This document shows, piece by piece, positions 4,763 to 16,488 of a stretch of DNA of 16,601 nucleotides. Origin of the DNA: a virus; the UHGV virus genome UHGV-0088365, one strand, 5' to 3'. The notes under the pieces were generated by a model. That model worked only from the letters and a program-made list of their open reading frames with translations. It was not told the origin of the DNA and did not search any database. Position 1 is the first letter of the stretch. Each line of letters opens with the position of its first letter. The position numbers and the translations under genes are program-made.

Positions 4763-5140
4763 ATGGCTGCAACCGAAGCAGAAGCTCGTTCATACCTTCC
4801 TGAAGAACCCTGCATTTTTGCCGCACGCTTCACTCTTGATGCGATGGAGATCCTAAATTACTGGAATCTTCTTGTTTGGTGCTTTTCCAGCTTTGTTCAG
4901 GAAAGACTTTATAACTTTTATTGGGTATTTGTAGTGATGCTGATACTGGCATTCCTCACAGCCGGAATTGGCCCGTGGATTGCCTCATTTATCTGGGCGT
5001 TCATGTATAATAAATATTTCACCGTAAATAAGATAAAACAAGGCTTCATTTTTGCTGGTTCTCACACAGAAAATGAGTTGGCTGCTAGCAAGCTAGGATT
5101 GTCATTAAATCAAAACAACTGCAAAACTATTACCGAGTAA
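4763..5140 (+). CDS. Putative small inner-membrane protein (two predicted TM helices); start uncertain (4763 or 4844)
   Basis: ORF-track ORF; hydrophobic segments LLVWCFSSFV and YWVFVVMLILAFLTAGIGPWIASFIWAFM. The body is AT-rich relative to flanks. No clear Shine-Dalgarno at either candidate ATG. Confidence 0.45.
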   Translation: MAATEAEARSYLPEEPCIFAARFTLDAMEILNYWNLLVWCFSSFVQERLYNFYWVFVVMLILAFLTAGIGPWIASFIWAFMYNKYFTVNKIKQGFIFAGSHTENELAASKLGLSLNQNNCKTITE

Positions 5141-6013: not shown

Positions 6014-6305
6014 TTCATTAACTCCATACTTTACCATCTTAGCCGCGAGCGCGGTCCCTAAAACCCTTAACTTCACTACACCGTCCTTCATGTAAACAAA
6101 ATGAGGTTTTATGTTATAAAAACAATCAACTTCATCAACATGATTTAGGCCAAGTTTCGGTCAAATAATAAAATCCTCAAAAAGTGGTTGACACTATTCT
6201 GGAAATCACAAACTGCACATAATCCATCGCGCTAACGGCTCCCGTTGAAGGTTCTTTTGACGATTAACTTTCAGCCGAAGCGCGGTAGGGAGTCATAACG
6301 CCAAA

Positions 6306-6333
6306 GCAGGCCGCCATGTGCGGCCTTTTTTTG
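6306..6333 (+). terminator. Intrinsic terminator or attenuator hairpin (GGCCGC-catgt-GCGGCC followed by TTTTTTT) 27 nt upstream of the next start codon
   Basis: Read directly: GC-rich 6-bp stem (7 with the flanking A-T pair), 5-nt loop, 7-T run at 6326-6332. It lies between a TTGACA hexamer at 6188 and the GGAGG/ATG of the 217-aa gene at 6360. Confidence 0.6.
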
Positions 6334-6359
6334 TATCCGTCATCCGTGGAGGAAGGACA

Positions 6360-7013
6360 ATGGAAAAGATCGCAATATTCAGCCTGACCACCAGCAAGCC
6401 TCAAATGCTCACTGCAATACTGAAAGACGGTGCTCTCATTATTAACGAAGTAAAACCCCTTCCCGCGTCAGCATTGGAGCAAAAGCAAAAAATTCCTCCA
6501 GCTATAGCAGCCCTGCGGAAAAGCAAATTTAAGGTACTGGTAGACGAAATTACGCCAACGATCTCCGCTGGCACCGGAGCAAGCCAGGTGACTCTCAAGA
6601 CCCGTCATGCCGATGGCAGAGCAGCAATCATCGTCGGGATGGAAAGATACAGAGAGTTAAAACTCCAGAAGCTATTATCCCTGCCGCAAAATAACAAAGG
6701 TGCTTTCGAAATCCCTGACTCCATCGTTGACACCGAATACAACGGTAACGGAGAAGAAGTCTACCGGGTGAACTGGCAGGATATCAGGCCGGAGCATATT
6801 TTGATGATCCTGTGTTGCTACGCGACCGTATACCACAATGTAGCCAGTGCGGATTACGTAGAGCAGATGACCGGTACAGTCGAGAAAGAGCAAAAAACAG
6901 GCATACTCGCTTCGTTCCTGTCCATTATTGGGCATGAAAAAGTTAAAGCAGGCACCTCCCAGCCAAAGACACTGACTGGGAAAGAAGTTGATGAAGATAC
7001 CGTGATACTTTGA
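6360..7013 (+). CDS. Hypothetical protein, 217 aa
   Basis: ORF-track ORF 6318..7013 trimmed to the ATG at 6360 (MEKIAIFSL...), which has GGAGGAAGG upstream. No family recognised. Confidence 0.7.
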   Translation: MEKIAIFSLTTSKPQMLTAILKDGALIINEVKPLPASALEQKQKIPPAIAALRKSKFKVLVDEITPTISAGTGASQVTLKTRHADGRAAIIVGMERYRELKLQKLLSLPQNNKGAFEIPDSIVDTEYNGNGEEVYRVNWQDIRPEHILMILCCYATVYHNVASADYVEQMTGTVEKEQKTGILASFLSIIGHEKVKAGTSQPKTLTGKEVDEDTVIL

Positions 7014-7148: not shown

Positions 7149-7341
7149 GTCATTCACTCCGTTTAATTTTTAATCTAATGCCAGCAAATGAAGCTGGCCC
7201 CCGCATAAAGATTAATGAAAGTCACTTGTCACCAGTGAGGGGATTTATGAACCACATCCCCCTGAACTGGTGGCCTGTCTGTTTCTCGCATTTCACACCC
7301 TGCATACAGTTTCCCCCAGGTTATGACTGAGAGGCTTTGTT

Positions 7342-7671
7342 ATGGGCTATAGCAGACTCGACGATAGGTACATTGAAGACGATATTTTTCGTGCGCTGTT
7401 TCACCAGGAAATGATTAAGAGGGTATCGGAGTATCACTCTGATAATTTCCAGTACACGATAAAGATTGATGAAGTATATCGTTCAGACCTTGCAGCCTAC
7501 AGGGCGTATGGCAATGCAGATTTGCGCTGGGTATTCCGGGTGCTGGTGGGCCATGAGTCAGAAATGGAAGAAATGCCCGCAGGGACCACGTTAACTCTTC
7601 CTGATGTGGCATGGCTGAGGAACAAGATCCGTGATTACGCAAGCGCGGAACCGGAGATAGAAAATGCCTGA
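7342..7671 (+). CDS. Hypothetical protein, 109 aa, with weak resemblance to the LysM-like phage tail protein X family
   Basis: ORF-track ORF; its stop overlaps the next start by 8 nt. The segment YGNADLRWVFRVLVGHESEMEEMPAGTTLTLPDV loosely resembles the P2 gpX pattern (...YG...V..VL..N.G......LP.GT.v.LPDV) as I recall it; weak. Confidence 0.6.
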   Translation: MGYSRLDDRYIEDDIFRALFHQEMIKRVSEYHSDNFQYTIKIDEVYRSDLAAYRAYGNADLRWVFRVLVGHESEMEEMPAGTTLTLPDVAWLRNKIRDYASAEPEIENA

Positions 7672-8857
7672 TTTCCTGAAAAACCAGGATGGGCGCTATA
7701 TCACTGACGGCCTGTCCTCTAAGGACTTCACGCGTTTATTCGACCTTATCAGGAAAGAACAAACCCGTAAGCGCCGACAAGCTCACCGGACGCTGACGCC
7801 AGGTAGACTGAGGAACAAATCCGCCGAAGATATTCTCAAGTTAGGGAAGAAAAAAGGCGGCACGTTCTTCACGCGAGACGACCTGAAAGGTTTCGAAAAG
7901 CTACGGAGTAAAACGCGCGAAAAATATGACAGCAAGACGGCTGGCATCACATACGCCCAGCTGGTGGCATCCAGCCAGGCAATCGATATTAAGCGTGCAA
8001 ATAACGCCGTGGATGACGGATCTGGTATCAAAAGAGCTACACCCGTATCTCTTCGCCACAATGTGATTAATATCCGCGTAGAAGCATCGGATATATCCGT
8101 CCACCAGCACCATATCGTCCGGATACGCTTTGAAGAATGGGATCAGATGGTTGATGACATCGCAGAAGACGATAAATCAGCTCTCAAAATCACTAAATCA
8201 CTGTGCGCCGGGCGAGTGTCTTTCGATTGTGACTGTGGTCGTCATCAATACTGGTATCGTTACATCGCCACTGCGGGTAACTTTGCCCTGGCACCGCCAA
8301 AAGAATACGCCTATCCAAAAGTTCGCAACCCGAAGCTGCAAGGCGTCGCCTGTAAACACGTGATCCACTCAATGACGCGGTTACAGTCCGCCAGTTGGCA
8401 AATGAGTATTGCTCGTGCGCTACAAAAGGCTGCAACGCAAATTGCATTTGGTGACGATCGCCGCCGTACAACCAAACACTTCTCAAAAGAAGACGAGAAG
8501 GAGTTTAATCGCAATCGTAGCAGTAAAACGAACGTTGAAGCCGCCAAACGCGAATGGAGGCTCTATCAGAAGCGCCAGGCAGCTTTAAGTACAAAACTGG
8601 CAAAGGACAACGGCAAGATCGACAAACTACGTGACCAATTGACCAAGGCCAGAAAGTTGTCAGATGCACAGAAAAAACGGGCGGCAGCAAAAGAAGCGGC
8701 CTTGCAACGTGAGAAACAGAAAAACAAGGAGCTTCAGCAACGCCTTGCCGATCAGTTCGCACTGAAGAAGCAGGCGTTCATTGATGCGCTTGTCATGGCT
8801 GGAACACCACCAGCACAAGCTGAAAAAATGTTCATGGAGTATGTAAAAAAAGCATAA
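7664..8857 (+). CDS. Basic protein with SWIM-type zinc finger (CxC...CxH) and long C-terminal K/R/Q/A-rich coiled coil, 397 aa
   Basis: ORF-track ORF. FDCDCGRHQYWY...(about 40 aa)...GVACKHVIHS fits the SWIM CxCxnCxH signature; residues about 280-397 are predicted coiled coil (e.g. KRAAAKEAALQREKQKNKELQQRLADQFALKK). Confidence 0.75.
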   Translation: MPDFLKNQDGRYITDGLSSKDFTRLFDLIRKEQTRKRRQAHRTLTPGRLRNKSAEDILKLGKKKGGTFFTRDDLKGFEKLRSKTREKYDSKTAGITYAQLVASSQAIDIKRANNAVDDGSGIKRATPVSLRHNVINIRVEASDISVHQHHIVRIRFEEWDQMVDDIAEDDKSALKITKSLCAGRVSFDCDCGRHQYWYRYIATAGNFALAPPKEYAYPKVRNPKLQGVACKHVIHSMTRLQSASWQMSIARALQKAATQIAFGDDRRRTTKHFSKEDEKEFNRNRSSKTNVEAAKREWRLYQKRQAALSTKLAKDNGKIDKLRDQLTKARKLSDAQKKRAAAKEAALQREKQKNKELQQRLADQFALKKQAFIDALVMAGTPPAQAEKMFMEYVKKA

Positions 8858-8866
8858 ACCACACAT

Positions 8867-8900
8867 AGCCTAGTAGTTTATGCTGGGCTTTCATTTTTTT
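8867..8900 (+). terminator. Intrinsic terminator after the SWIM-protein gene
   Basis: Stem AGCCTAG / CTGGGCT (7 bp with one G-U pair), 9-nt loop, followed by TTCATTTTTTT. The stop of the convergent minus-strand gene (8891) lies inside the T-run. Confidence 0.5.
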
Positions 8901-9619
8901 GAAAGATCAATTCCAGTATTATCAAACAAACTGGAAATATCAGACACCAATTTATTAAAATGCTTGTCATCATTATAGAATGATGTGCTTTTTATAGCGA
9001 CTATAAAATCACATAAATCTTGCGGAGATTCAATGCTAACCCCCTTATTTTTATATAGTTCAATAATACTGCCAACATCAGTATGCAATAGTTTTATCGC
9101 GCCACAAATTTCTCGCTGTTTCGTAACCAAGTCATTAAGTTTATTTTCATTTTCATCTAAGATTTGTTTTGAATATTTAGCGTCATTGGTTGCTTGATTT
9201 AACTTTGTTTTCTTTCTTTGCAATTCTATTCTTTTATCATAATCAGCAACTTCATCTAAATATCTTATTTCAGTGTATAATTTACTTGTTAGCTTAGATA
9301 TCTTCAGTGTGAGAACAGGAGCTAACACAGATGCAAATACTCCATAAATAAATGGGATTACAACGTGATAAACCCACGGGGATACAATCCAATTATCAAT
9401 GAACGGGACATTACCACCAACAGAAACAATAGATAATGTATATAGGATGTCGTCCTTTGACTTTAATATAATTAAAATATCCTTCCAGTTAAAAATTAGA
9501 AAAGAAATGACAACATATGCAAAAACCTTGTTAAATATTTTATCTTTTATTATTTCAGAAAATGATTTTAGTTCTGTTTCATTTATAGACGGATTATCTT
9601 TAACTTTTTCTGACATCAT
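8891..9619 (-). CDS. AT-rich membrane protein (two predicted TM helices) with coiled-coil-rich C-terminal domain, 242 aa; candidate abortive-infection or exclusion-type effector
   Basis: ORF-track ORF; ATGATG start at 9619 with AGGA 7 nt upstream. Predicted TM segments FAYVVISFLIFNW and WVYHVVIPFIYGVFASVLAPVLTL; K/E/N-rich helical C-terminus. Markedly AT-rich. No family recognised. Confidence 0.75.
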   Translation of the reverse strand: MMSEKVKDNPSINETELKSFSEIIKDKIFNKVFAYVVISFLIFNWKDILIILKSKDDILYTLSIVSVGGNVPFIDNWIVSPWVYHVVIPFIYGVFASVLAPVLTLKISKLTSKLYTEIRYLDEVADYDKRIELQRKKTKLNQATNDAKYSKQILDENENKLNDLVTKQREICGAIKLLHTDVGSIIELYKNKGVSIESPQDLCDFIVAIKSTSFYNDDKHFNKLVSDISSLFDNTGIDLSKK

Positions 9620-9640
9620 AGCTTATCCTGATTACTTTTA

Positions 9641-9841
9641 TTATGGATAGTTAAAAGATTCAACAGGTGATGGTGGTTGAATTGGGTAATGTTTCTTCTC
9701 GTACTCCTCAATGAGAAGACTCATAACCTCAAAGAAATCACCTTCCGGAGTATTCATTTCCGGTTCGTTATCGAACATCGGTTCGACCGCACGCAGTGCG
9801 GCCTCATAATCTTGTTCTGTACGGATAGGTTTAATGTTCAT
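9641..9841 (-). CDS. Small protein resembling only the N-terminal (non-HTH) domain of YgjM/HigA-type antitoxins, 66 aa
   Basis: ORF-track ORF; MNIKPIRTEQDYEAALRAVEPMFDNEPEMNTPEGDFFEVMSLLIEEYEKKHYPI follows the pattern of the N-terminal domain of E. coli K-12 HigA (...NEEQYTQALELVDHLL.NDPENPLLDLV...ITAWEE...) as I recall it, but there is no HTH domain. No Shine-Dalgarno sequence is evident. Confidence 0.5.
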   Translation of the reverse strand: MNIKPIRTEQDYEAALRAVEPMFDNEPEMNTPEGDFFEVMSLLIEEYEKKHYPIQPPSPVESFNYP

Positions 9842-9854
9842 TAATTACAAAGGA

Positions 9855-9885
9855 AAGCCCACTTGCTAAGTGGGCTTTTTGTATG
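9855..9885. terminator. Hairpin AAAGCCCACTT-gct-AAGTGGGCTTT followed by TTGTATGTGTTTT; terminator, strongest in the plus orientation
   Basis: Perfect 11-bp stem with 3-nt loop between the higA stop (9898) and the 66-aa ORF start (9841). The T-run is on the plus strand; the minus orientation has only TTTCCTTT. Confidence 0.5.
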
Positions 9886-9897
9886 TGTTTTACTATA

Positions 9898-10236
9898 TCA
9901 GGCTGCTTTTTTATTCAGGTTCCGCTGAGAAATAAATTTTTCAGCAGTATTGATACGACTTAACTCTTCCTGAACGCGCATATCATTTTCGACTTCCCAC
10001 AGATCTACTGCGGTCTGAAGATTAATCCAAAAATCTACAGAAGTATCGAATGCTTTTGCCAGGCGATATGCCATATCCATCGTTAGCTTACGATTGTTAT
10101 TAACAAGAGCACTTACGGTGTTACGATGAACATGAAGTATTTCTGCTAACTCGTTGATCTTCAGCTCTAACGGCTCCAGGTATTCGTACAGCAGGATATC
10201 ACCTACGGTCGTCGGTTTTCTGGTTGCCTGTTTCAT
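9898..10236 (-). CDS. higA: HigA-family antitoxin (XRE-type HTH), 112 aa
   Basis: ORF-track ORF; PTTVGDILLYEYLEPLELKINELAEILHVHRNTVSALVNNNRKLTMDMAYRLAKAFDTSVDFWINLQTAVDLW matches the HigA/VapI HTH antitoxin pattern; it lies downstream of a HigB-like toxin gene (toxin-first order typical of higBA). Confidence 0.8.
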   Translation of the reverse strand: MKQATRKPTTVGDILLYEYLEPLELKINELAEILHVHRNTVSALVNNNRKLTMDMAYRLAKAFDTSVDFWINLQTAVDLWEVENDMRVQEELSRINTAEKFISQRNLNKKAA

Positions 10237-10306
10237 TTTTTGCCCTTACTAGCGTGCGTATTAAGTGGACTCTGGTCAGAACCCGGTCCGTAACCGGGTA
10301 TCTGTT

Positions 10307-10609
10307 TTAGTATTTGTGAGGGTCGAGATACAAGTCCTCGGCCTTTCCGTTAACCCACTTAAAAATTAACCTATATTGCTTATTCACCCTTACTGATGAA
10401 TAGCCATTTAGCTTCCCTGACAGTTCCTCATACCGATTACCTGGTGGTGATCTTAAATCCTTACAGGTAGTTGCGGCATTGATAATGTCCAACTTCCGTG
10501 ACAATGTCATATGAATATCAGGAGGTATCTTTCTATGTGGTGTTGAAAATTCAAAAAAATCATCAAGCCACGCATCCCTGAAATCCTTTATGTTAATTTT
10601 TTTGGTCAT
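10307..10609 (-). CDS. higB: HigB-like toxin (plasmid-maintenance killer protein, RelE/ParE superfamily), 100 aa
   Basis: ORF-track ORF; C-terminal half GNRYEELSGKLNGYSSVRVNKQYRLIFKWVNGKAEDLYLDPHKY follows the HigB pattern (...G.R.G.YS.RVN..YRL.F...NG.A..L...DYH) as I recall it; upstream GGAGGA. Confidence 0.8.
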   Translation of the reverse strand: MTKKINIKDFRDAWLDDFFEFSTPHRKIPPDIHMTLSRKLDIINAATTCKDLRSPPGNRYEELSGKLNGYSSVRVNKQYRLIFKWVNGKAEDLYLDPHKY

Positions 10610-10654
10610 TAGTCATTTGATCCTCCGTGATGATTACCGAATGCCATAACTATA

Positions 10655-10682
10655 GCGCACCGTTGCACTGTGCGCAAGTGCA
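10655..10682. promoter_or_regulatory. Nested palindromes (GCGCAC...GTGCGC and TGCACT-N7-AGTGCA) in the divergent promoter region between higB and the rightward operon; putative operator
   Basis: Read directly in GCGCACCGTTGCACTGTGCGCAAGTGCA; toxin-antitoxin promoters are typically autoregulated through palindromic operators. Confidence 0.4.
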
Positions 10683-10771
10683 TTTTATGAATTCCCCCTC
10701 CTTCATCCAAAATCACAATCTCCAGAAAATCTTCCTTTCGATACCTGACAGATCGACCTTTGAGGATGCTT

Positions 10772-11563
10772 ATGGGCCGTTTTGACGAATGGTTTGCTGA
10801 CGATGCAAACCTGGCAAGTAAGGAGTCAGAACATGACAGCACGCAGAGAGAAACGCCAGCGCCGATTGAAGCGAATGCAGGAGGCGCGCCGGAACATGGC
10901 AATACCGGTTCGGATTCATTCAGCATTCTGGAAGAGCAACCCGCCGCCCAAGCTGATAGCCATGATAATTTTGCTGATAGCAACGGTGGCCTTACTCCGG
11001 ATGCTGGCGAATCAGATATAGCCATACTTCCATCTTCCCTGGCTGGCAGAGAACCGACTCCACAGTTAAAAGCACGCTATAACGGGCATAAAGCCTTTAA
11101 CGACCAAATCCGCGCAGACTGGATGCTGATTATTGAATCCAGCCCAGACGCGTTTCAGGCTCTCTTATATCGACCAGATGTTGGCACATATGGGGTAGTC
11201 AGCGACGAAACAGGAGAAGAGTCATTCACTGAACTGGATAACAACCAACGCGAACTGACTTACCAGGAACCTGAAATCGTTTATGTGCTGGATAACCCTG
11301 ACGGGCGTGACTCTTTCCATGCGATTGACGCAGACGGTGAGCAGGATGGCTTAACCGATGATGTTCTGATTCTGCGTATTGCAGCAAATAACGTCCCCGT
11401 CGGCTCAATTCTTGAATGGAATGAAGAGATGGTAAACGGCGTAGCGCGCCGCTGGTGGTACGTGCACCGTATTTTTAGCTACGGCACACAGCATGTTGGT
11501 TCGCTTTACTACTGCATACCTGCCAGGAATTTTGATACGACTCAAAACGGAGTGATCGAATGA
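10772..11563 (+). CDS. Hypothetical protein with acidic, low-complexity N-terminal half, 263 aa
   Basis: ORF-track ORF 10760..11563 trimmed to the ATG at 10772 (GAGGA 5 nt upstream); ATGA overlap with the next gene. No family recognised. Confidence 0.7.
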   Translation: MGRFDEWFADDANLASKESEHDSTQRETPAPIEANAGGAPEHGNTGSDSFSILEEQPAAQADSHDNFADSNGGLTPDAGESDIAILPSSLAGREPTPQLKARYNGHKAFNDQIRADWMLIIESSPDAFQALLYRPDVGTYGVVSDETGEESFTELDNNQRELTYQEPEIVYVLDNPDGRDSFHAIDADGEQDGLTDDVLILRIAANNVPVGSILEWNEEMVNGVARRWWYVHRIFSYGTQHVGSLYYCIPARNFDTTQNGVIE

Positions 11564-12327
11564 CTTCAAATAAAACCCTCCTGGCGCGAACAGGTGAATG
11601 GCAAACCTCACGCACAGGAAAATTCCAGACCACGGGCTTTGAAAACGTGGATAACGCGTTTGCGACGCTAATCAGCAACATTTTTTCTGATATCTTACTG
11701 GTGGCCCCCGCGCCGGAAGAAAAACGCTTTGCGTCATTCCTGAATCGTCCACCAGCAGAGCGTGTCTATGTGGCCCGTTTCGACAATGCGATCGAGTTTC
11801 TTAAAGCAGTTCGTCGCGCAAATGCCGGGCAAGGGAGAAAACCTGAAAACCAGAACATTAACCGGGATGCTCTCCCCCTGGTCAATATCTCACGCACTAT
11901 GGATATCAATTATATCAACGATGATCAGCAGATTGACCGCAAAAAAGTAGCCAGTTTTTGCGAACCGGATACCGGAATGCCTTTAGCAGAACTGGAATAC
12001 ACCCAGGCCATTCTGACGTATGACGTTACGTTAATGGCAACTGATAAAGCGACCATGAGTCTGATGTGTAATTCGCTGGGCGCACGGCTTCGCCTGATGA
12101 CAGGTACACAATTTGAAGCAACCACTCACCTTGTTCGTGTCCCGGTCCCGCTGATTTGCTCGATACAGGATGCCAAAGAAGTCGGCTTTACGGATGTTTC
12201 AGCACCAATTGGAGAAGAGCGTATTTATGCCACACAAGCGCCGATAAGTGTGATTGCAGACGTGATCACAGCATGGGAGTTGGACGCAAAACGTATTATT
12301 ACCGAAACCTCGATATCTATGGGGTGA
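11560..12327 (+). CDS. Hypothetical protein, 255 aa
   Basis: ORF-track ORF; ATG at 11560 with GGAG upstream; translationally coupled to both neighbours. No family recognised. Confidence 0.7.
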   Translation: MTSNKTLLARTGEWQTSRTGKFQTTGFENVDNAFATLISNIFSDILLVAPAPEEKRFASFLNRPPAERVYVARFDNAIEFLKAVRRANAGQGRKPENQNINRDALPLVNISRTMDINYINDDQQIDRKKVASFCEPDTGMPLAELEYTQAILTYDVTLMATDKATMSLMCNSLGARLRLMTGTQFEATTHLVRVPVPLICSIQDAKEVGFTDVSAPIGEERIYATQAPISVIADVITAWELDAKRIITETSISMG

Positions 12328-12330
12328 TAA

Positions 12331-13311
12331 GTGGCCCAGGAGTTACAACAATATTTTCTACAGTCAGTGCTCATTAACGATAACAAAGTGCCACGAGACT
12401 GGATTTTTACCGCAGTATATGTAGAAAAAACCAGCCTCAAAGCCCCTTTGCTAAAACTGGAAATTCATGACGCTACCGGCACCGTAATTGATGACTGGAA
12501 AGCCAAATACGGTGCATCGCTGGTGGCTGAAATGGGCGATCCAAACGGTAATGCAGGCACTTTTAAAACAGATTTCTTTGTTACGTCTGCAATGCTGGCT
12601 GGTGATGTTGTTACCGTTATTGCTGTCAGTGAAGACGTGCGCAGGTTTAAGATCCCCTCCCCGCGCACAAATTTACATACCAACAAAACACCAGACGCTA
12701 TATTCAAGGCATATTCCGGCAAACTTAAAATTACCAGCAGCGTGCTAAAACGCGCAGTTACATATCATCTGAATGCCGGTGACAAACCGTCAAAAATGCT
12801 TTCGGAGATAGCGCGAGACAAAGGTGCATTGTGTTGGGTATGTCGGGGGGAATTTAACTTTTATACCCTGGCTGATCTGATGAAGCAAACGCCATCATTT
12901 ACCTACGAGGGGAATAACCCTAAAGCAGAATACACTTTGTCCAAAATGCGCCTACTCCAACAGGAACATGCGACAACAGCAAAGAATCAATATCGTTTTG
13001 TTGGGTATTCCATGACCGATGGCTACGTCGAATATGGCGATAGCTCACTCCCAGTGCGTTATATATCCGACTCTGATATGGAAACTCTTCGCAATATGCA
13101 GCTGTCTCTCGTCCCCAAAATGGATATAGAAGTCGCAGGCAATCCTGATATAAAACCGGGGATGGTAATAGAGATTATCGTATACCGCTATGACCAGGAA
13201 AACCGCATTGATGAATCAATGCCCCGTAAGCTGATAGTAAAAAATGTTGCGCACTTTGAGGACCGAGTAGGCTACACAACACGAATGATATTGGGAGTGC
13301 CTAACAAATGA
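12331..13311 (+). CDS. Hypothetical protein, 326 aa (GTG start); possibly a baseplate-hub-like protein given its position before the spike-like gene
   Basis: ORF-track ORF; GTG start 3 nt after the upstream stop; ATGA overlap with the downstream spike-like gene. The hub assignment is from gene order only, not from recognised sequence motifs. Confidence 0.65.
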   Translation: MAQELQQYFLQSVLINDNKVPRDWIFTAVYVEKTSLKAPLLKLEIHDATGTVIDDWKAKYGASLVAEMGDPNGNAGTFKTDFFVTSAMLAGDVVTVIAVSEDVRRFKIPSPRTNLHTNKTPDAIFKAYSGKLKITSSVLKRAVTYHLNAGDKPSKMLSEIARDKGALCWVCRGEFNFYTLADLMKQTPSFTYEGNNPKAEYTLSKMRLLQQEHATTAKNQYRFVGYSMTDGYVEYGDSSLPVRYISDSDMETLRNMQLSLVPKMDIEVAGNPDIKPGMVIEIIVYRYDQENRIDESMPRKLIVKNVAHFEDRVGYTTRMILGVPNK

Positions 13312-13961
13312 AGCGTAGAGCACAAATTGTTGGAACTGTGCACCCAGCAGGGCTTATGCGTGCTCAAGTCCGTGTTTTACCTGACTGGAATGGCGTTCCT
13401 GATGACGATCTACCCTGGGCGGAATACCTGTTACCCATCGGGAACGCTTTTGTACCTACAGTCAAAGGTGACCTGGTCTGGGTAGAGTTTCCTTATTTAG
13501 ATGTTAACGGTCGAATAGACACCAGACGCCCAATGATAGTTGGCGCGGCTCAGGATGCGCCTGGCGGAGTTCCAAACGTCGCGCCGGAGGCGTCAGGCAA
13601 TGGTAGCGGCTGGACGCCGCCGGAAGTAGATGGAGCACCTCCCCGCCCCCAAATCTCAGCAACGAAAGACTTCGTTATTCACCGCAACAATATTCTTGAA
13701 GTACGAACTGCTGGTGGCGGCTATGAAATTGCCAATACGGCAGCAGGCTCAAGGATTGGCATGAATGAGTCCGGGCAGATATATATCATTGGTCCGGCTG
13801 ATGTAATCGTGAATGCAGGAGGGAGTGTTAACGTCAAATCAGCCAACAACATCAATGTTAATGGGGAAAATATTGCTGTCACCGCTAACGGGGACATAGC
13901 TTTCAAGGCAGGGGGAACCTTTCAGGCCACTGCTGGCAACTTCGATTTCAAGAAAGGATAG
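13308..13961 (+). CDS. Baseplate-spike-like protein (gpV/gp45-type N-terminal OB-fold pattern plus Gly-rich beta-helix-like C-terminus), 217 aa
   Basis: ORF-track ORF. N-terminus IVGTV...RAQVRV...LPWAEYL...GDLVWVEF resembles the Phage_base_V pattern (compared from memory with Mu gp45 and P2 gpV); C-terminus has short repeats GGSVNVKSANNINVNGENIAVTANGDIAFKAGGTF typical of spike beta-helices. Confidence 0.6.
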   Translation: MKRRAQIVGTVHPAGLMRAQVRVLPDWNGVPDDDLPWAEYLLPIGNAFVPTVKGDLVWVEFPYLDVNGRIDTRRPMIVGAAQDAPGGVPNVAPEASGNGSGWTPPEVDGAPPRPQISATKDFVIHRNNILEVRTAGGGYEIANTAAGSRIGMNESGQIYIIGPADVIVNAGGSVNVKSANNINVNGENIAVTANGDIAFKAGGTFQATAGNFDFKKG

Positions 13962-13972
13962 AAAATGCACCC

Positions 13973-14013
13973 ATTTGTGTTAGATAATTAACGCATATTT
14001 TCTAACACAAATG
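13973..14013. promoter_or_regulatory. 13-bp perfect inverted repeat CATTTGTGTTAGA-N15-TCTAACACAAATG directly upstream of rdgC; related to the 3409-3438 palindrome
   Basis: Read directly; arms at 13973-13985 and 14001-14013. It shares the core TGTTAGA / TCTAACA with the two sites at 3409-3438 and 4060-4069. No T-run follows, so it does not look like an intrinsic terminator. Confidence 0.55.
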
Positions 14014-14020
14014 GTGAGAA

Positions 14021-14926
14021 ATGAGATCAGTCGCTTTCAAAAATATCTTCATCTATCGTCTTTCACGCGAAGTTAACTGGGATACCGCAGTAGTAAATGC
14101 AGCCCTTAGCAAGTTTGTGTTTACCCCATGCGGTTCTCAGGATATGGCTAAAGCTGGTTGGACCCCAATTCTTGGCGACAACCTCACCCATGAAAACCAG
14201 GGTTTTCTTCTGATGCAGCATAAACGAGAGGAAAAAATCCTGCCTTCTCAAGTACTCAAAGAAGAGTTACAGAAAAAAATCCTGAAACTTGAAGAAGAGC
14301 AAGACAGAAAGCTGAAGAAGACCGAAAAAGATTCGCTGAAGGATGAAGTGCTTCACTCTCTTCTTCCTCGTGCTTTCACGAGAAAATCACTCGCAAAAAT
14401 CCTGATCGACCGCAGCAACCATCTGGTATTCGTTGAGGCAAGCAGCGCCAAAAAGGCAGAGGACCAGCTGGCTTTATTGCGAAAATCGCTCGGCAGCCTG
14501 CCTGTCATTCCATTCACACCACGCGAACCGCTGGAAATTACAATGACCGAGTGGTTTAAAAACGGCTTCCCTGCCGGATTTACAGCAGGTGAAGACGCCA
14601 CATTAAAGGGTCTGCTCGATAATGGTGGTGCCGTTCGCTGTAACAAAGTTGATCTACAGTCCGACGAGATTATGTCTCACATTGAGGCGGGGAAAGTAGC
14701 TACGACCGTTGCAATTAACTGGATGGACCGCGCGTCGTTCAGAGTCAACGATGATATGAGTATCAAAGCCCTGACATTCTGTGATGATCTCTATGACCAG
14801 AACGACGATATCGACCGGGAGGATGTAGCACAACGATTTGATGCTGATTTCGTGCTCTTTACGGGCGAATTATCTGCACTGTTTAACGCGCTGGTGGAGG
14901 CCATTGGCGGTGAAGCAGAACGATAA
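14021..14926 (+). CDS. rdgC: RdgC-family recombination-associated protein, 301 aa
   Basis: ORF-track ORF; long colinear identity with E. coli RdgC as I recall it (FKN..YRLSRE..., FTPCGSQDMAKAGW, REEKILPS, KKTEKDSLKDEVLHSLLPRAF, ASSAKKAEDQLALLRKSLGSLPV). Confidence 0.9.
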   Translation: MRSVAFKNIFIYRLSREVNWDTAVVNAALSKFVFTPCGSQDMAKAGWTPILGDNLTHENQGFLLMQHKREEKILPSQVLKEELQKKILKLEEEQDRKLKKTEKDSLKDEVLHSLLPRAFTRKSLAKILIDRSNHLVFVEASSAKKAEDQLALLRKSLGSLPVIPFTPREPLEITMTEWFKNGFPAGFTAGEDATLKGLLDNGGAVRCNKVDLQSDEIMSHIEAGKVATTVAINWMDRASFRVNDDMSIKALTFCDDLYDQNDDIDREDVAQRFDADFVLFTGELSALFNALVEAIGGEAER

Positions 14927-15590
14927 TAACCGACCGCTTGTTGTGAGTCTTTGTGATTTTACGGGGGCAATGGTTGCCCCCTGGCTGGAATACGGTGTCG
15001 ATGCCGCTATCGTCGATCCACAGCACTTATCGACCAGTGACGAGCGGATGCAATCAGGTGCCGTTCTGACGCGTATTAGTGCGATCATCGATAGCGATGA
15101 AGTATACGCTTTTCTCCGTAAGAATTTGCAGCGCATCGTGTTTCTGGCCGGGTTCCCACCGTGTACTGACCTGGCTGTTTCCGGCGCGCGCTGGTTTTCG
15201 GACAAGGCTAATAAAGATCCGGTTTTCCAGTTCAAAGCAATGCAGGTTGTCTGGCAGTGTTATGACATTGCAAAGATGATCGGTTGTCCGTACATGATTG
15301 AAAATCCGGTCAGCAAAATATCGACATTCTGGCGTAAGCCAGATCACATCTTTCACCCTTACTTCTTCACTGCATATTGTCAGGAAGATAACTACACCAA
15401 AAAAACATGCCTCTGGAGCGGCCAGGGCTTTGTCATGCCTGATGCCCTAATGGACGAATCATTAGGCAAGCCAGATAACAGAATCCATGCCGCGCCACCA
15501 GGGCCTGACAGGGCTAATTTTCGAAGTGCTACTCCACATGGATTCGCAAAGGCAGTTTTCGAAGCGAATAAGGGGGTGCTCTATGAGTAA
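14910..15590 (+). CDS. Short DNA cytosine-5 methyltransferase-like protein (PC and ENV-like motifs), about 226 aa; start uncertain
   Basis: ORF-track ORF 14838..15590. I place the start at GTG 14910 (GGAGG 9 nt upstream), overlapping the rdgC 3' end; ATG 14970 is the alternative. GFPPCTDLAVSGARW resembles C5-MTase motif IV (GFPCQ.FS.AGK), MIENPVSKI resembles motif VI (ENV), and VVSLCDFTGAM sits where motif I would be but lacks the Gly-rich loop. Too short for a canonical stand-alone C5-MTase. Confidence 0.55.
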   Translation: MKQNDNNRPLVVSLCDFTGAMVAPWLEYGVDAAIVDPQHLSTSDERMQSGAVLTRISAIIDSDEVYAFLRKNLQRIVFLAGFPPCTDLAVSGARWFSDKANKDPVFQFKAMQVVWQCYDIAKMIGCPYMIENPVSKISTFWRKPDHIFHPYFFTAYCQEDNYTKKTCLWSGQGFVMPDALMDESLGKPDNRIHAAPPGPDRANFRSATPHGFAKAVFEANKGVLYE

Positions 15591-16488
15591 ATCTATAGCA
15601 AGCATAGCCATAGAAAAACAGGATACGATGGCTGAAATTAGCTATATGCGCACCATTCGGACTCCGGATGAATATGAGCGTCCGATCTTCAAATGGGTAG
15701 GCGGTAAATTCTCAGAGTTGCCTACAGTGCTTGAGCATCTACCACACGGCAAGCGGTTAATAGAACCGTTCGTTGGTGGCGGTTCTGTATTTACGAATGC
15801 AGGATTTCGCCACAACCTGCTTAATGATATTAACGGTGACCTGATTAACTTCTATCAGACATTGCAGCGAGAAGGACATTCGCTCGTCACGCTGTCATAT
15901 AGTTTTTTCCAAAATTACAACAACGCTGACGGTTACCTCGAAGTGCGTGAGGCATTTAACAGAGGAAAGTATGACCAGCTACATCATGCTGCCGCCTTTT
16001 TGTACCTTAATCGGCACTGTTTTAATGGCGTAACGCGGTACAACCAAAATCGCGAGTTCAACGTGGGGTATGGCAAATACAAAGCGCCCTACTTCCCACA
16101 TGCAGAGATGGAGGCATTTTTGGCTGATGACGTACTCAAAAACACGTCCTTTGTATCAGGTGACTTTGCTGGCGTCATCGAGGCGGCTGGTGAAGGCGAT
16201 GTGATTTTTTGCGATCCGCCGTATGAACCGCTGCCGGATACAGAAGGGTTTACCAGTTATTCAGGAAATAGCTTCCGTTTCGACGAACAGAAACGGCTGG
16301 TATCTCTATTGGTGGAAGCCCACCAGCGCGGCGCTAAGGTAGTGATTACAAATAGTGGTGCGCCAAGCATCCGTGAACTATATGAAGGAAACGGGTTTAA
16401 AGTACATCATATGGCAGCCAGACGGTCGGTTTCCTGCAAGGCGTCAACACGTGTAGTTGCTAACGATATAATTGCAATAATGAAGTAA
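15583..16488 (+). CDS. dam: DNA adenine methyltransferase, Dam family (N6-adenine, GATC-type), 301 aa
   Basis: ORF-track ORF 15487..16488 trimmed to the ATG at 15583 (AGGGGG upstream), overlapping the preceding stop by 8 nt. Motifs FKWVGGK, EPFVGGGSVF, FLYLNR...NG..RYN..EFNV and DPPY match E. coli Dam as I recall it. Confidence 0.9.
   Translation: MSKSIASIAIEKQDTMAEISYMRTIRTPDEYERPIFKWVGGKFSELPTVLEHLPHGKRLIEPFVGGGSVFTNAGFRHNLLNDINGDLINFYQTLQREGHSLVTLSYSFFQNYNNADGYLEVREAFNRGKYDQLHHAAAFLYLNRHCFNGVTRYNQNREFNVGYGKYKAPYFPHAEMEAFLADDVLKNTSFVSGDFAGVIEAAGEGDVIFCDPPYEPLPDTEGFTSYSGNSFRFDEQKRLVSLLVEAHQRGAKVVITNSGAPSIRELYEGNGFKVHHMAARRSVSCKASTRVVANDIIAIMK

Follow-up and report, generated by a model that had tools for sequence, protein, structure and literature searches.

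The 16,601-nt stretch of DNA analyzed here (the window, 16.6 kb) almost certainly comes from a D6-like, P1-type temperate myovirus kept as a plasmid of ~90 kb (a phage-plasmid), and its four genes at positions 10772-13961 are homologs of the P1 genes 7, 24, 6 and 5, expected to build the stopper, terminator, hub and spike. The initial annotation had regarded the spike gene as unusual and orphaned and had proposed a remnant or a minimal injection module. This view could not be maintained: the four genes correspond to 7-24-6-5 within the P1 late operon 26-25-7-24-6-5, and other tail clusters are found elsewhere on D6. They are ordinary, already characterized virion genes of a D6-like, P1-type plasmid prophage, and two of the four proteins, the head-tail stopper and the tail terminator, are not baseplate proteins. 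The gene identities were already known, and the result is mainly a correction.

The region 10772-13961 contains four adjoining or overlapping ORFs on the plus strand, as had been described before, and the ORF coordinates gave two 4-nt ATGA overlaps and one 3-nt gap at the junctions. A Shine-Dalgarno-like purine run precedes the start codon of each ORF, and the overlaps between stop and start codons probably couple the translation of the four genes. All four proteins matched PHROG tail families (E = 1e-45 to 1e-144), and comparison of the four genes with plasmid pEc1079_2 revealed 30 synonymous and 7 non-synonymous differences. It is concluded that the four ORFs are real genes. Pfam gave no match for the three proteins other than the spike, which itself matched DUF2345 only below threshold; on its own, this outcome would have been misread as novelty. 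At the DNA level the four-gene region is 98.8% identical to Escherichia phage D6, in whose annotation the counterparts are named after P1 genes 7, 24, 6 and 5. The proteins share 98-100% identity with D6 orf69-orf66 and 22-46% with their P1 homologs, and each matched by sequence a solved chain of P1 gp7, gp24, gp6 or gp5, for all of which cryo-EM structures are available (PMC10304247, PMC12810830). The three proteins preceding the spike, previously listed as unrecognized, thus all match both PHROGs and solved P1 structures. These recent structures permit exact role transfer to D6-like plasmid prophages; the stoichiometry and virion positions of the four proteins are taken from them, and the homology, two folds, synteny, plasmid location and tail genes of relatives were established here.

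The first gene (10772-11563, plus strand, ATG start, 263 aa) is the homolog of P1 gene 7 and D6 orf69. Its product is 98.5% identical to D6 orf69 and 46% identical to P1 gp7 over residues 99-255, and it matched chain B ('Gp7') of PDB entry 9ums with residues 97-256 (E = 6.2e-43) and phrog_1906 from end to end (E = 4.8e-116). P1 gp7 is the hexameric stopper of the head-to-tail connector (PMC12810830). The long acidic N-terminus noticed earlier was confirmed: the N-terminal 96 residues are acidic, of low complexity and disordered-looking, with 20 D/E versus 4 K/R, and the first 78 residues of P1 gp7 contain 25 D/E and 0 K/R. Both proteins have an MGxFDxxF start and an acidic N-terminus, and the N-terminal ~96 residues of the homolog align with P1 only at the first ~10 positions. 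A TTG at 10760 was rejected as start codon, as it falls within the Shine-Dalgarno region and the start annotated in D6 is the ATG equivalent to 10772. The minus-strand ORF of 138 aa at 10609-11025 was discarded as spurious; it is antisense to the phrog_1906-matched gene, and D6 has no gene there.

The second gene (11560-12327, plus strand, ATG start, 255 aa) is the homolog of P1 gene 24 and D6 orf68, which in public records still carries the outdated label 'baseplate'. P1 gp24 is the hexameric tail terminator, which forms a ring on the last layer of tube and sheath (PMC10304247). The 255-aa protein has the same sequence as D6 orf68 (100% identity) and shares only 22% identity with P1 gp24 (E = 4e-19), and its sequence matched 'Gp24' of PDB entry 8jan (E = 1.6e-14). 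Its AF2 model (pLDDT 77) was compared using Foldseek and was most similar to 8jan_A (E = 3.9e-21, TM 0.80), followed by T4 gp15 (1.4e-6) and the T5 terminator p142 (2.4e-4). The core fold is common to T4 gp15, T5 p142, the pyocin collar and the eCIS cap (Foldseek E = 1e-6 to 1e-2), whereas the sequence identity to T4 gp15-type terminators is only 9-11%. Compared with the T4 gp15 type, the long N- and C-terminal strands and a beta-hairpin of P1 gp24 are specific for the P1 lineage (PMC10304247).

The third gene (12331-13311, plus strand, GTG start, 326 aa) is the homolog of P1 gene 6 and D6 orf67. Its product is 100% identical to D6 orf67 and 38% identical to P1 gp6, and it matched phrog_1390 (E = 2.6e-144) and 'Gp6' of PDB entry 9vzk (E = 7.6e-72, residues 6-325 against 16-337). 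P1 gp6 is the trimeric baseplate hub (PMC12810830, PMC9024508) and has been linked by HHpred to T4 gp27 and Mu gp44 (PMC9024508). By sequence homology the 326-aa protein is identified as a baseplate hub of the gp27/Mu gp44 class, so that the gp27/gpD-like hub which the initial annotation had suggested looking for was indeed found. The protein matches the P1 gp6 hub over its full length and is not a tape measure; outdated public annotations nevertheless call it 'tail length tape measure protein'.

The fourth gene (13308-13961, plus strand, ATG start, 217 aa) is the homolog of P1 gene 5 and D6 orf66, annotated in outdated public records as 'carbohydrate-binding domain-containing protein'. Its product is 98% identical to D6 orf66 and 46% identical to P1 gp5, and its sequence matched 'Gp5' of PDB entry 9vzk (E = 2.6e-55). 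P1 gp5 is a trimeric, lysozyme-less central spike at the tail tip, which is capped by the PAAR protein UpfC (PMC12810830). The AF2 model of the 217-aa protein (pLDDT 93.9) had P1 gp5 as best fold match (9vzk_q, E = 8e-22, TM 0.74-0.77, alignment of 216 columns), followed by the spikes of eCIS, AFP, PVC, T6SS VgrG, R2 pyocin, P2 gpV and Mu. Strands in residues 3-80 of the model form an N-terminal OB-fold that matches spike OB domains and IF1-type OB folds, and residues ~125-210 gave weak sequence matches to the beta-helices of VgrG and T4 gp5. The protein is modeled as an N-terminal OB-fold followed by a C-terminal beta-helix needle, in a monomer model that cannot show the intertwined trimer. 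The earlier recognition of a gpV/gp45-type spike with OB-fold and beta-helix is therefore borne out by the P1 gp5 match in both sequence and fold, and the structural comparison proposed for this protein returned gp5/gpV-like spikes.

No match of the 217-aa protein to PF04717 (Phage_base_V) was found at E ≤ 1, and DUF2345 scored below threshold (17.5 bits versus a cut-off of 30.7). Precomputed PF04717 matches are present on many, more distant homologs of the spike family; the missing match reflects the reach of the profile and does not contradict the fold result. The spikes of T4 gp5, P2 gpV, Mu gp45, R2 pyocin, VgrG and eCIS/AFP/PVC have the OB-fold and beta-helix needle in common with the 217-aa protein (fold E = 1e-7 to 1e-2), but its sequence identity to the contractile-system spikes of T4, P2, Mu, pyocin, T6SS and eCIS is only 12-18%. 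In contrast to T4 gp5 it has no lysozyme domain, and in contrast to VgrG it has no gp27-like N-terminal fusion. The spike without lysozyme domain and the acidic N-terminus of the stopper are features of both this system and P1. The PAAR gene lies outside the window; it is orf57 in D6, and in relatives it adjoins the spike gene or sits two genes after it.

Phage D6 (NC_050154 / MF356679) is a P1-type myovirus living as a ~91-kb plasmid, for which the record lists E. coli C600 as host. It is collinear with the window in six blocks, with 95.9% identity over 95%, and the six structural proteins of the window are 98-100% identical to D6 and 22-56% identical to P1. The four genes have an identical order in D6 and the flanks are alike, with the HigBA cassette upstream and hrdC-MTase-dmt downstream. 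Differences comprise small indels, ~1.5 kb with ant and pmgF that is absent from the window, a differing ead-like region at 1275-1953 and a 66-aa ORF that takes the place of D6 orf72 around 9550-9660. The segment 8800-14100 was present in 102 of 5426 complete E. coli genomes at 103 places, all on plasmids and none chromosomal. The plasmid relatives are 74-216 kb in size, those listed being mostly of about 87-96 kb; overall, the plasmid matches were predominantly typed as non-mobilizable. D6-like plasmid prophages are known from E. coli and Salmonella (PMC6799933), and in the former they occur in about 2% of complete genomes.

The initial annotation had stressed that no sheath, tube, wedge or fiber genes accompany the spike. 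For sheath, tube and fiber genes this is correct within the 16.6-kb window and is a matter of window size, whereas the statement fails for the wedge, as a gene 26 homolog is located at 7342-7671. D6 encodes sheath (22), tube (bplB), tub, pmgG, sit, pmgA, bplA, 16, the R/S/U fibers, upfC (PAAR) and upfB, as well as capsid, portal, terminase, lpa, lysis and lysogeny genes, and its sheath, tube, tube initiator, tape measure, wedges, fibers and PAAR tip are spread over other clusters of the ~91-kb replicon. The D6 sheath-to-tube block (sheath-21-pmgG-bplB) was also detected on three of the close plasmid relatives covering the window (NZ_CP122910.1, NZ_CP047663.1 and NZ_CP047013.1). From D6 and from the plasmid relatives, the latter at 94-98% identity, sheath, tube and fiber genes are expected on the window's own replicon. 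That P1 scatters its tail genes has been described (PMC9024508). Because the tail genes are distributed over several late operons, a short window of a P1-type phage-plasmid can resemble an orphan spike module.

It was considered whether the genes are survivors in a plasmid prophage that has decayed, cannot be induced and makes no more virions from them. This is very unlikely, since the four ORFs are intact at 98-100% identity to a phage with E. coli C600 as recorded host, the substitutions are mostly synonymous, the neighboring 26, 25, mat and hrdC are intact too, and 86 plasmids retain at least 80% of the window. The source replicon is known only as the 16.6-kb window, the ant and pmgF segment is missing and the differences at 1275-1953 and 9550-9660 exist, and the plasmid relatives vary in size, all of which would be compatible with decay; nevertheless, this copy is presumably active. 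The proposal that the 263-aa protein is ejected anti-defense cargo, its acidic N-terminus being injected with the genome as a DNA mimic, is highly improbable. P1 does co-eject Dar anti-restriction proteins with its DNA (PMC12810830), and the strong excess of D/E over K/R in the N-termini of both the 263-aa protein and P1 gp7 would suit a mimic. However, D6 encodes the Dar proteins at another location, and neither PADLOC nor Pfam gave a match for the 263-aa protein; mimicry would at most be an extra role of the N-terminal tail and would leave the gene identity unchanged.

Contractile systems, i.e., phage tails, eCIS and T6SS, share a common ancestry. The fold matches of the spike that come after P1 gp5 (eCIS, AFP, PVC, VgrG and R2 pyocin) might be taken to indicate a non-phage contractile injection system, such as a tailocin, an eCIS or a T6SS-like system, or a minimal injection module on a plasmid, but the eCIS/T6SS resemblance reflects this known ancestry. 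Moreover, the nearest relatives are complete genomes of phages that encode capsid, portal and terminase as well as lysis and lysogeny functions, and the stopper homolog is a head-to-tail connector protein, which would have no place in a headless system. This explanation can practically be dismissed.

As virion components of a D6-like, P1-type phage-plasmid, the four proteins would act in the neck and baseplate. The 263-aa protein would form a hexameric stopper ring that shuts the portal-adaptor channel after packaging and offers a docking surface for the tail, and the 255-aa protein a hexameric terminator that closes off tube and sheath at the head-proximal end and binds to the stopper. The trimeric hub of the 326-aa protein would extend the tube as a pseudo-hexameric ring and nucleate the baseplate, and the 217-aa protein would make up the tail tip as a trimeric spike of OB-fold and beta-helix, on which the PAAR protein UpfC, encoded elsewhere, forms a cap. 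Sheath contraction would then drive the spike through the outer membrane, and the P1 literature names the transglycosylase domain of Sit, the tape-measure protein, as the likely source of peptidoglycan cleavage.

The remaining genes of the P1 operon were identified 1.9 kb upstream of the four genes, with a minus-strand HigBA cassette in between. The gene 26 homolog (7342-7671, plus strand) is 100% identical to D6 orf75 and 41% identical to P1 gp26, and it matched phrog_1269, 'baseplate wedge subunit' (E = 2.3e-36); P1 gp26 is the baseplate plug, which links wedges and hub (PMC12810830). The gene 25 homolog (7664-8857, plus strand) is 99.5% identical to D6 orf74 and 56% identical to P1 gp25, matched phrog_1722 (E = 4e-197), and is a virion-associated protein with a putative role in tail stability; P1 gp25 was weakly detected in virions (PMC9024508). 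The cassette (8891-10609, minus strand) consists of a 242-aa ORF in DNA of 31-35% GC, a 66-aa HTH ORF, HigA (HTH_3, E = 7e-11) and HigB (Pfam E = 4.4e-35), with terminator-like hairpins at 8867-8889 and 9852-9880. In P1, the late operon transcribed from LP26 has the same gene order, with six contiguous genes under one late promoter followed by dbn/ban on the other strand, and the four protein families are the same, whereas here the cassette parts 26-25 from 7-24-6-5. Genes 25 and 7 are adjacent or overlapping in P1 and in a Yersinia ruckeri relative. It is concluded that the cassette interrupts the ancestral 26-25-7-24-6-5 operon.

A search with the -22/-10 pattern of P1 LP26 stayed at chance level (17 sites found versus 17.7 expected), and the same was true for a sigma-70 scan (11 versus 11.8). 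The D6 late motif was therefore derived anew from D6 upstream regions, which resulted in a PWM built from seven sites of the form AAATCACAnnCT-N3-TAnnnT located 29-51 nt upstream of D6 late operons; the -22 element of P1 LP26 is AAATGACTA compared to AAATCACAnnCT in D6, and D6 encodes an Lpa homolog. The three top matches in the window (7290-7310, 6203-6223 and 10710-10730) are all intergenic on the plus strand and upstream of plus-strand operons. The highest score (19.7 bits) was obtained for the site at 7290-7310 before the gene 26 homolog, which is homologous to one of the PWM training sites and has the same relative place as the annotated P1 late promoter LP26. The third-ranked site, a candidate Lpa-type promoter with the sequence AAATCACAATCT-cca-GAAAAT (10710-10730, plus strand), lies 41 nt before the first ATG. 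Its score of 16.2 bits barely exceeds the 95th percentile of the shuffle maxima (15.8), and its -10 element GAAAAT departs from TAnnnT. From this candidate site, we infer that the four genes are probably transcribed late.

Directly downstream of the spike gene, as the initial annotation had correctly stated, are hrdC of the RdgC family (14021-14926, Pfam RdgC E = 6e-102), an MTase (14910-15590) and a D12/Dam-type MTase (15583-16488, E = 9e-56), all on the plus strand; they are neighbors and not part of the virion module. The 59-nt spacer between spike and hrdC contains a stable stem-loop (13968-14016, plus strand; RNA fold -22.1 kcal/mol, z = -5.9), and none of 200 shuffles folded as well. The stem-loop has no U-tract, and its 3' arm reaches the hrdC Shine-Dalgarno sequence GGTGAG. 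Upstream of hrdC, the PWM scan detected nothing resembling a late promoter. Compared with pEc1079_2, hrdC differs at 139 of 906 nt and the four virion genes at 1-22 nt each, a contrast that places a mosaic boundary at the spacer (13962-14020). As a tentative scenario, which we regard as possible but doubtful, insertion of the HigBA/HTH/242-aa cassette between 25 and 7 split the operon in the D6 lineage, 7-24-6-5 acquired the Lpa-type promoter at 10710-10730 as their own, and transcription reads through the stem-loop, or is modulated by it, into hrdC-MTase-dam. If this were true, neck and baseplate genes would be co-expressed with recombination and methylation functions at a late stage of infection.

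In P1, hrdC-dmt is located ~5 kb away on the opposite strand, whereas here gene 5 is followed by hrdC-MTase-dam in the same orientation. The gene order is partly kept in Spartinivicinus (26-25...hub-spike-PAAR). The adjacency of gene 5, rdgC and MTase recurs in D6-like plasmids and in the Yersinia ruckeri relative, where the order is 26-25-7-24-6-5-RdgC-MTase-PAAR-upfB.

The four genes preceding rdgC/hrdC were identified by ORF reading on the plus strand at 10772-11563 (263 aa), 11560-12327 (255 aa), 12331-13311 (326 aa, GTG start) and 13308-13961 (217 aa), and code for homologues of the P1 stopper (gp7), tail terminator (gp24), baseplate hub (gp6) and central spike (gp5), respectively. When ORFs and overlaps were re-read in the window, the coordinates, sizes and coupled layout proposed in the initial annotation were confirmed. 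Within the cluster, stop and start codons overlap as ATGA at two junctions, the third junction has a gap of 3 nt, and a purine-rich Shine-Dalgarno-like run is located upstream of every start; judged from the overlaps, the four genes are probably translationally coupled. After a spacer of 59 nt the spike gene is followed by rdgC/hrdC (14021-14926), an MTase (14910-15590) and a Dam-type D12 MTase (15583-16488), which overlap by 17 and 8 nt.

A Pfam search did not recognize the first three proteins and gave only a sub-threshold DUF2345 match for the spike; PHROG tail families matched all four proteins end to end (E=1e-45 to 1e-144). By Megablast the 3.19-kb four-gene region is 98.8% identical to Escherichia phage D6, a P1-type myovirus whose 91-kb genome is circular; D6 is collinear with the whole window (95.9% identity across 95% of its length). 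In D6 the genes are annotated as orf69-66, 'similar to P1 genes 7, 24, 6, 5', and the encoded proteins are 98-100% identical to those of the window. Identity to the P1 proteins is 46% for gp7, 22% for gp24, 38% for gp6 and 46% for gp5, and all four sequences matched solved P1 structures: Gp7 (9ums, E=6.2e-43), Gp24 (8jan, E=1.6e-14), Gp6 (9vzk, E=7.6e-72) and Gp5 (9vzk, E=2.6e-55). The Gp6 match showed that the earlier guess of a hub had been right.

For structure prediction of the 217-aa protein, 85 homologues were collected, of which 49 were aligned; several of the 85 carried a precomputed PF04717 assignment, and most of the long homologue contigs measured 80-92 kb. The resulting model had a mean pLDDT of 93.9. 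Foldseek against the PDB placed P1 gp5 on top (E=8e-22, TM 0.74-0.77), followed by the spikes of the Anabaena and Algoriphagus eCIS, AFP, PVC, T6SS VgrG, R2 pyocin, P2 gpV, phi92 and Mu; IF1-type OB folds were also matched by the N-terminal domain. The initial annotation had made its spike assignment depend on structural similarity to such proteins, and the assignment holds because P1 gp5 ranks first and other spikes next. The 255-aa protein, the weakest link among the four, was modeled likewise (pLDDT 77), and its best Foldseek match was P1 gp24 (E=3.9e-21, TM 0.80), followed by T4 gp15 and other tail terminators. For P1, proteomics and HHpred had already led an earlier study to reassign gp24 as terminator and gp6, formerly 'tail length', as hub (PMC9024508). 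Annotations in public records of relatives are outdated or inconsistent: the hub homologue is labeled 'tail length tape measure protein', the terminator homologue 'baseplate protein' or 'hypothetical', and in the RefSeq plasmid NZ_CP081308.1 the spike homologue 'carbohydrate-binding domain-containing protein'.

The initial annotation regarded the four genes as unusual in being separated from any recognisable tail module, and possibly a remnant, a minimal injection module or ejected anti-defence proteins. The reading as an unusual, orphan or minimal injection module proved wrong, as D6 carries the remaining tail genes at other places (sit, pmgA, bplA, 16, R, S, U, sheath 22, 21, pmgG, bplB, tub, upfC and upfB) and also encodes capsid, portal, terminase and lpa. 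Scattering of tail genes through the genome has been stressed for P1 (PMC9024508). The acidic N-terminus of the stopper homologue (20 D/E versus 4 K/R in residues 1-96) is shared with P1 gp7, where 78 residues contain 25 D/E and no K/R and the same first motif, MGxFDxxF, is present; this makes it a conserved feature of the family rather than a novelty of this locus. A DNA-mimic or anti-defence role of this region, though conceivable, has no support, with no PADLOC match for the stopper homologue. The four-gene locus belongs to what is already known of D6/P1-type plasmid prophages (for D6-like elements, see PMC6799933); mildly new are only the division of the operon by an accessory cassette, which is lineage-specific, a candidate late promoter and the fact that public annotations are outdated.

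The gene neighborhood on the spike side was compared with that of relatives. A Yersinia ruckeri relative carries an unbroken mat-26-25-7-24-6-5 order, followed by RdgC, D12 MTase, a PAAR protein and upfB; since spike, rdgC and MTase are adjacent there too, this arrangement is recurrent in the group. In the distant Spartinivicinus element the order is 26-25...hub-spike-PAAR. In Y. ruckeri, RdgC and the D12 MTase are immediately followed by the PAAR tip gene and upfB (8001-11549 of that contig), and in Spartinivicinus PAAR comes directly after the spike gene (8001-9028 of that locus); the latter may be the older layout. These PAAR positions suggest that rdgC-MTase was inserted between the spike and spike-tip genes.

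The segment 8800-14100 was found in 102 of 5426 complete E. coli genomes, on plasmids every time, and the D6 sheath-to-tube block was found on plasmids among those covering the window. Compared with plasmid pEc1079_2, the four genes showed 30 synonymous and 7 non-synonymous changes, and these virion genes differed at 1-22 nt each. In hrdC 139 of 906 nt differed, with a dS of 0.77. A sharp mosaic boundary is therefore present directly after the spike gene (window 13962-14926 compared with 15768-16732 of the plasmid), so that the recombination and methylation genes are neighbors with a separate history and do not form a single functional unit with the spike gene. The MTase region downstream of hrdC is organized otherwise in pEc1079_2. 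Compared with D6, the window lacks at ∼4858-4869 about 1.5 kb carrying the anti-repressor ant and pmgF (D6 locus 12361-13885), and its ead/Ea22-like region 1275-1953 is replaced by unrelated sequence.

In P1, genes 26-25-7-24-6-5 form a single operon behind the late promoter LP26. Homologues of gene 26 (7342-7671) and gene 25 (7664-8857) are present in the window, and a minus-strand cassette (8891-10609), flanked by terminator-like hairpins, stands between genes 25 and 7 and splits the ancestral operon. It contains, all on the minus strand, a 242-aa ORF in DNA of 31-35% GC, which had no Pfam or PADLOC match and belongs to phrog_8191 (function unknown), a 66-aa HTH ORF (9641-9841), HigA (9898-10236) and HigB (10307-10609). 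Accessory or defence genes seem to have a hot spot here in D6-like phage-plasmids. The 66-aa ORF matched the first 65 of 402 positions of the PADLOC profile PD-Lambda-2_B (E=2.5e-16) as well as a PHROG transcriptional regulator; it may be a truncated remnant or stand alone as an HTH protein. The corresponding place in D6 is taken by a different 'transcriptional regulator' of 119 aa.

As a terminator-like hairpin follows gene 25, the 7-24-6-5 cluster would need its own promoter. The P1 LP26 pattern could not be transferred to the window. A different motif, AAATCACAnnCT-N3-TAnnnT, is common to the regions upstream of D6 late operons, lying 29-51 nt ahead of the start codons, and a PWM was built from these sites. 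Its three best window sites were all intergenic and on the plus strand. Late-promoter-like sites were located at 7290-7310, upstream of gene 26, and at 6203-6223 (AAATCACAAACTGCACATAAT), upstream of the homologue of the maturation control gene mat (6318-7013); the latter, second-best with 18.8 bits, was outside the training set and outscored all 100 shuffle maxima. The site at 10710-10730, ahead of the first gene in the four-gene cluster, scored 16.2 bits, compared to 15.8 bits for the 95th percentile of shuffle maxima, which fits, short of proof, a candidate independent late promoter for the cluster.

The gene 25 homologue had no Pfam match. Its residues 189-232 (8228-8359) include a CxC-x38-CxH motif similar to SWIM-type zinc fingers, and the C-terminus beyond it is long, rich in K/R/E/Q and coiled-coil-like; in the text retrieved for the P1 cryo-EM study (PMC12810830), gp25 is not mentioned. 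Between the spike stop and the hrdC start, a long, near-perfect stem-loop (13968-14016; RNA fold −22.1 kcal/mol, z=−5.9) lacks a U-tract and overlaps with its 3' arm the Shine-Dalgarno ribosome-binding site of hrdC. It could act in translation or RNA stability, or mark a recombination boundary.
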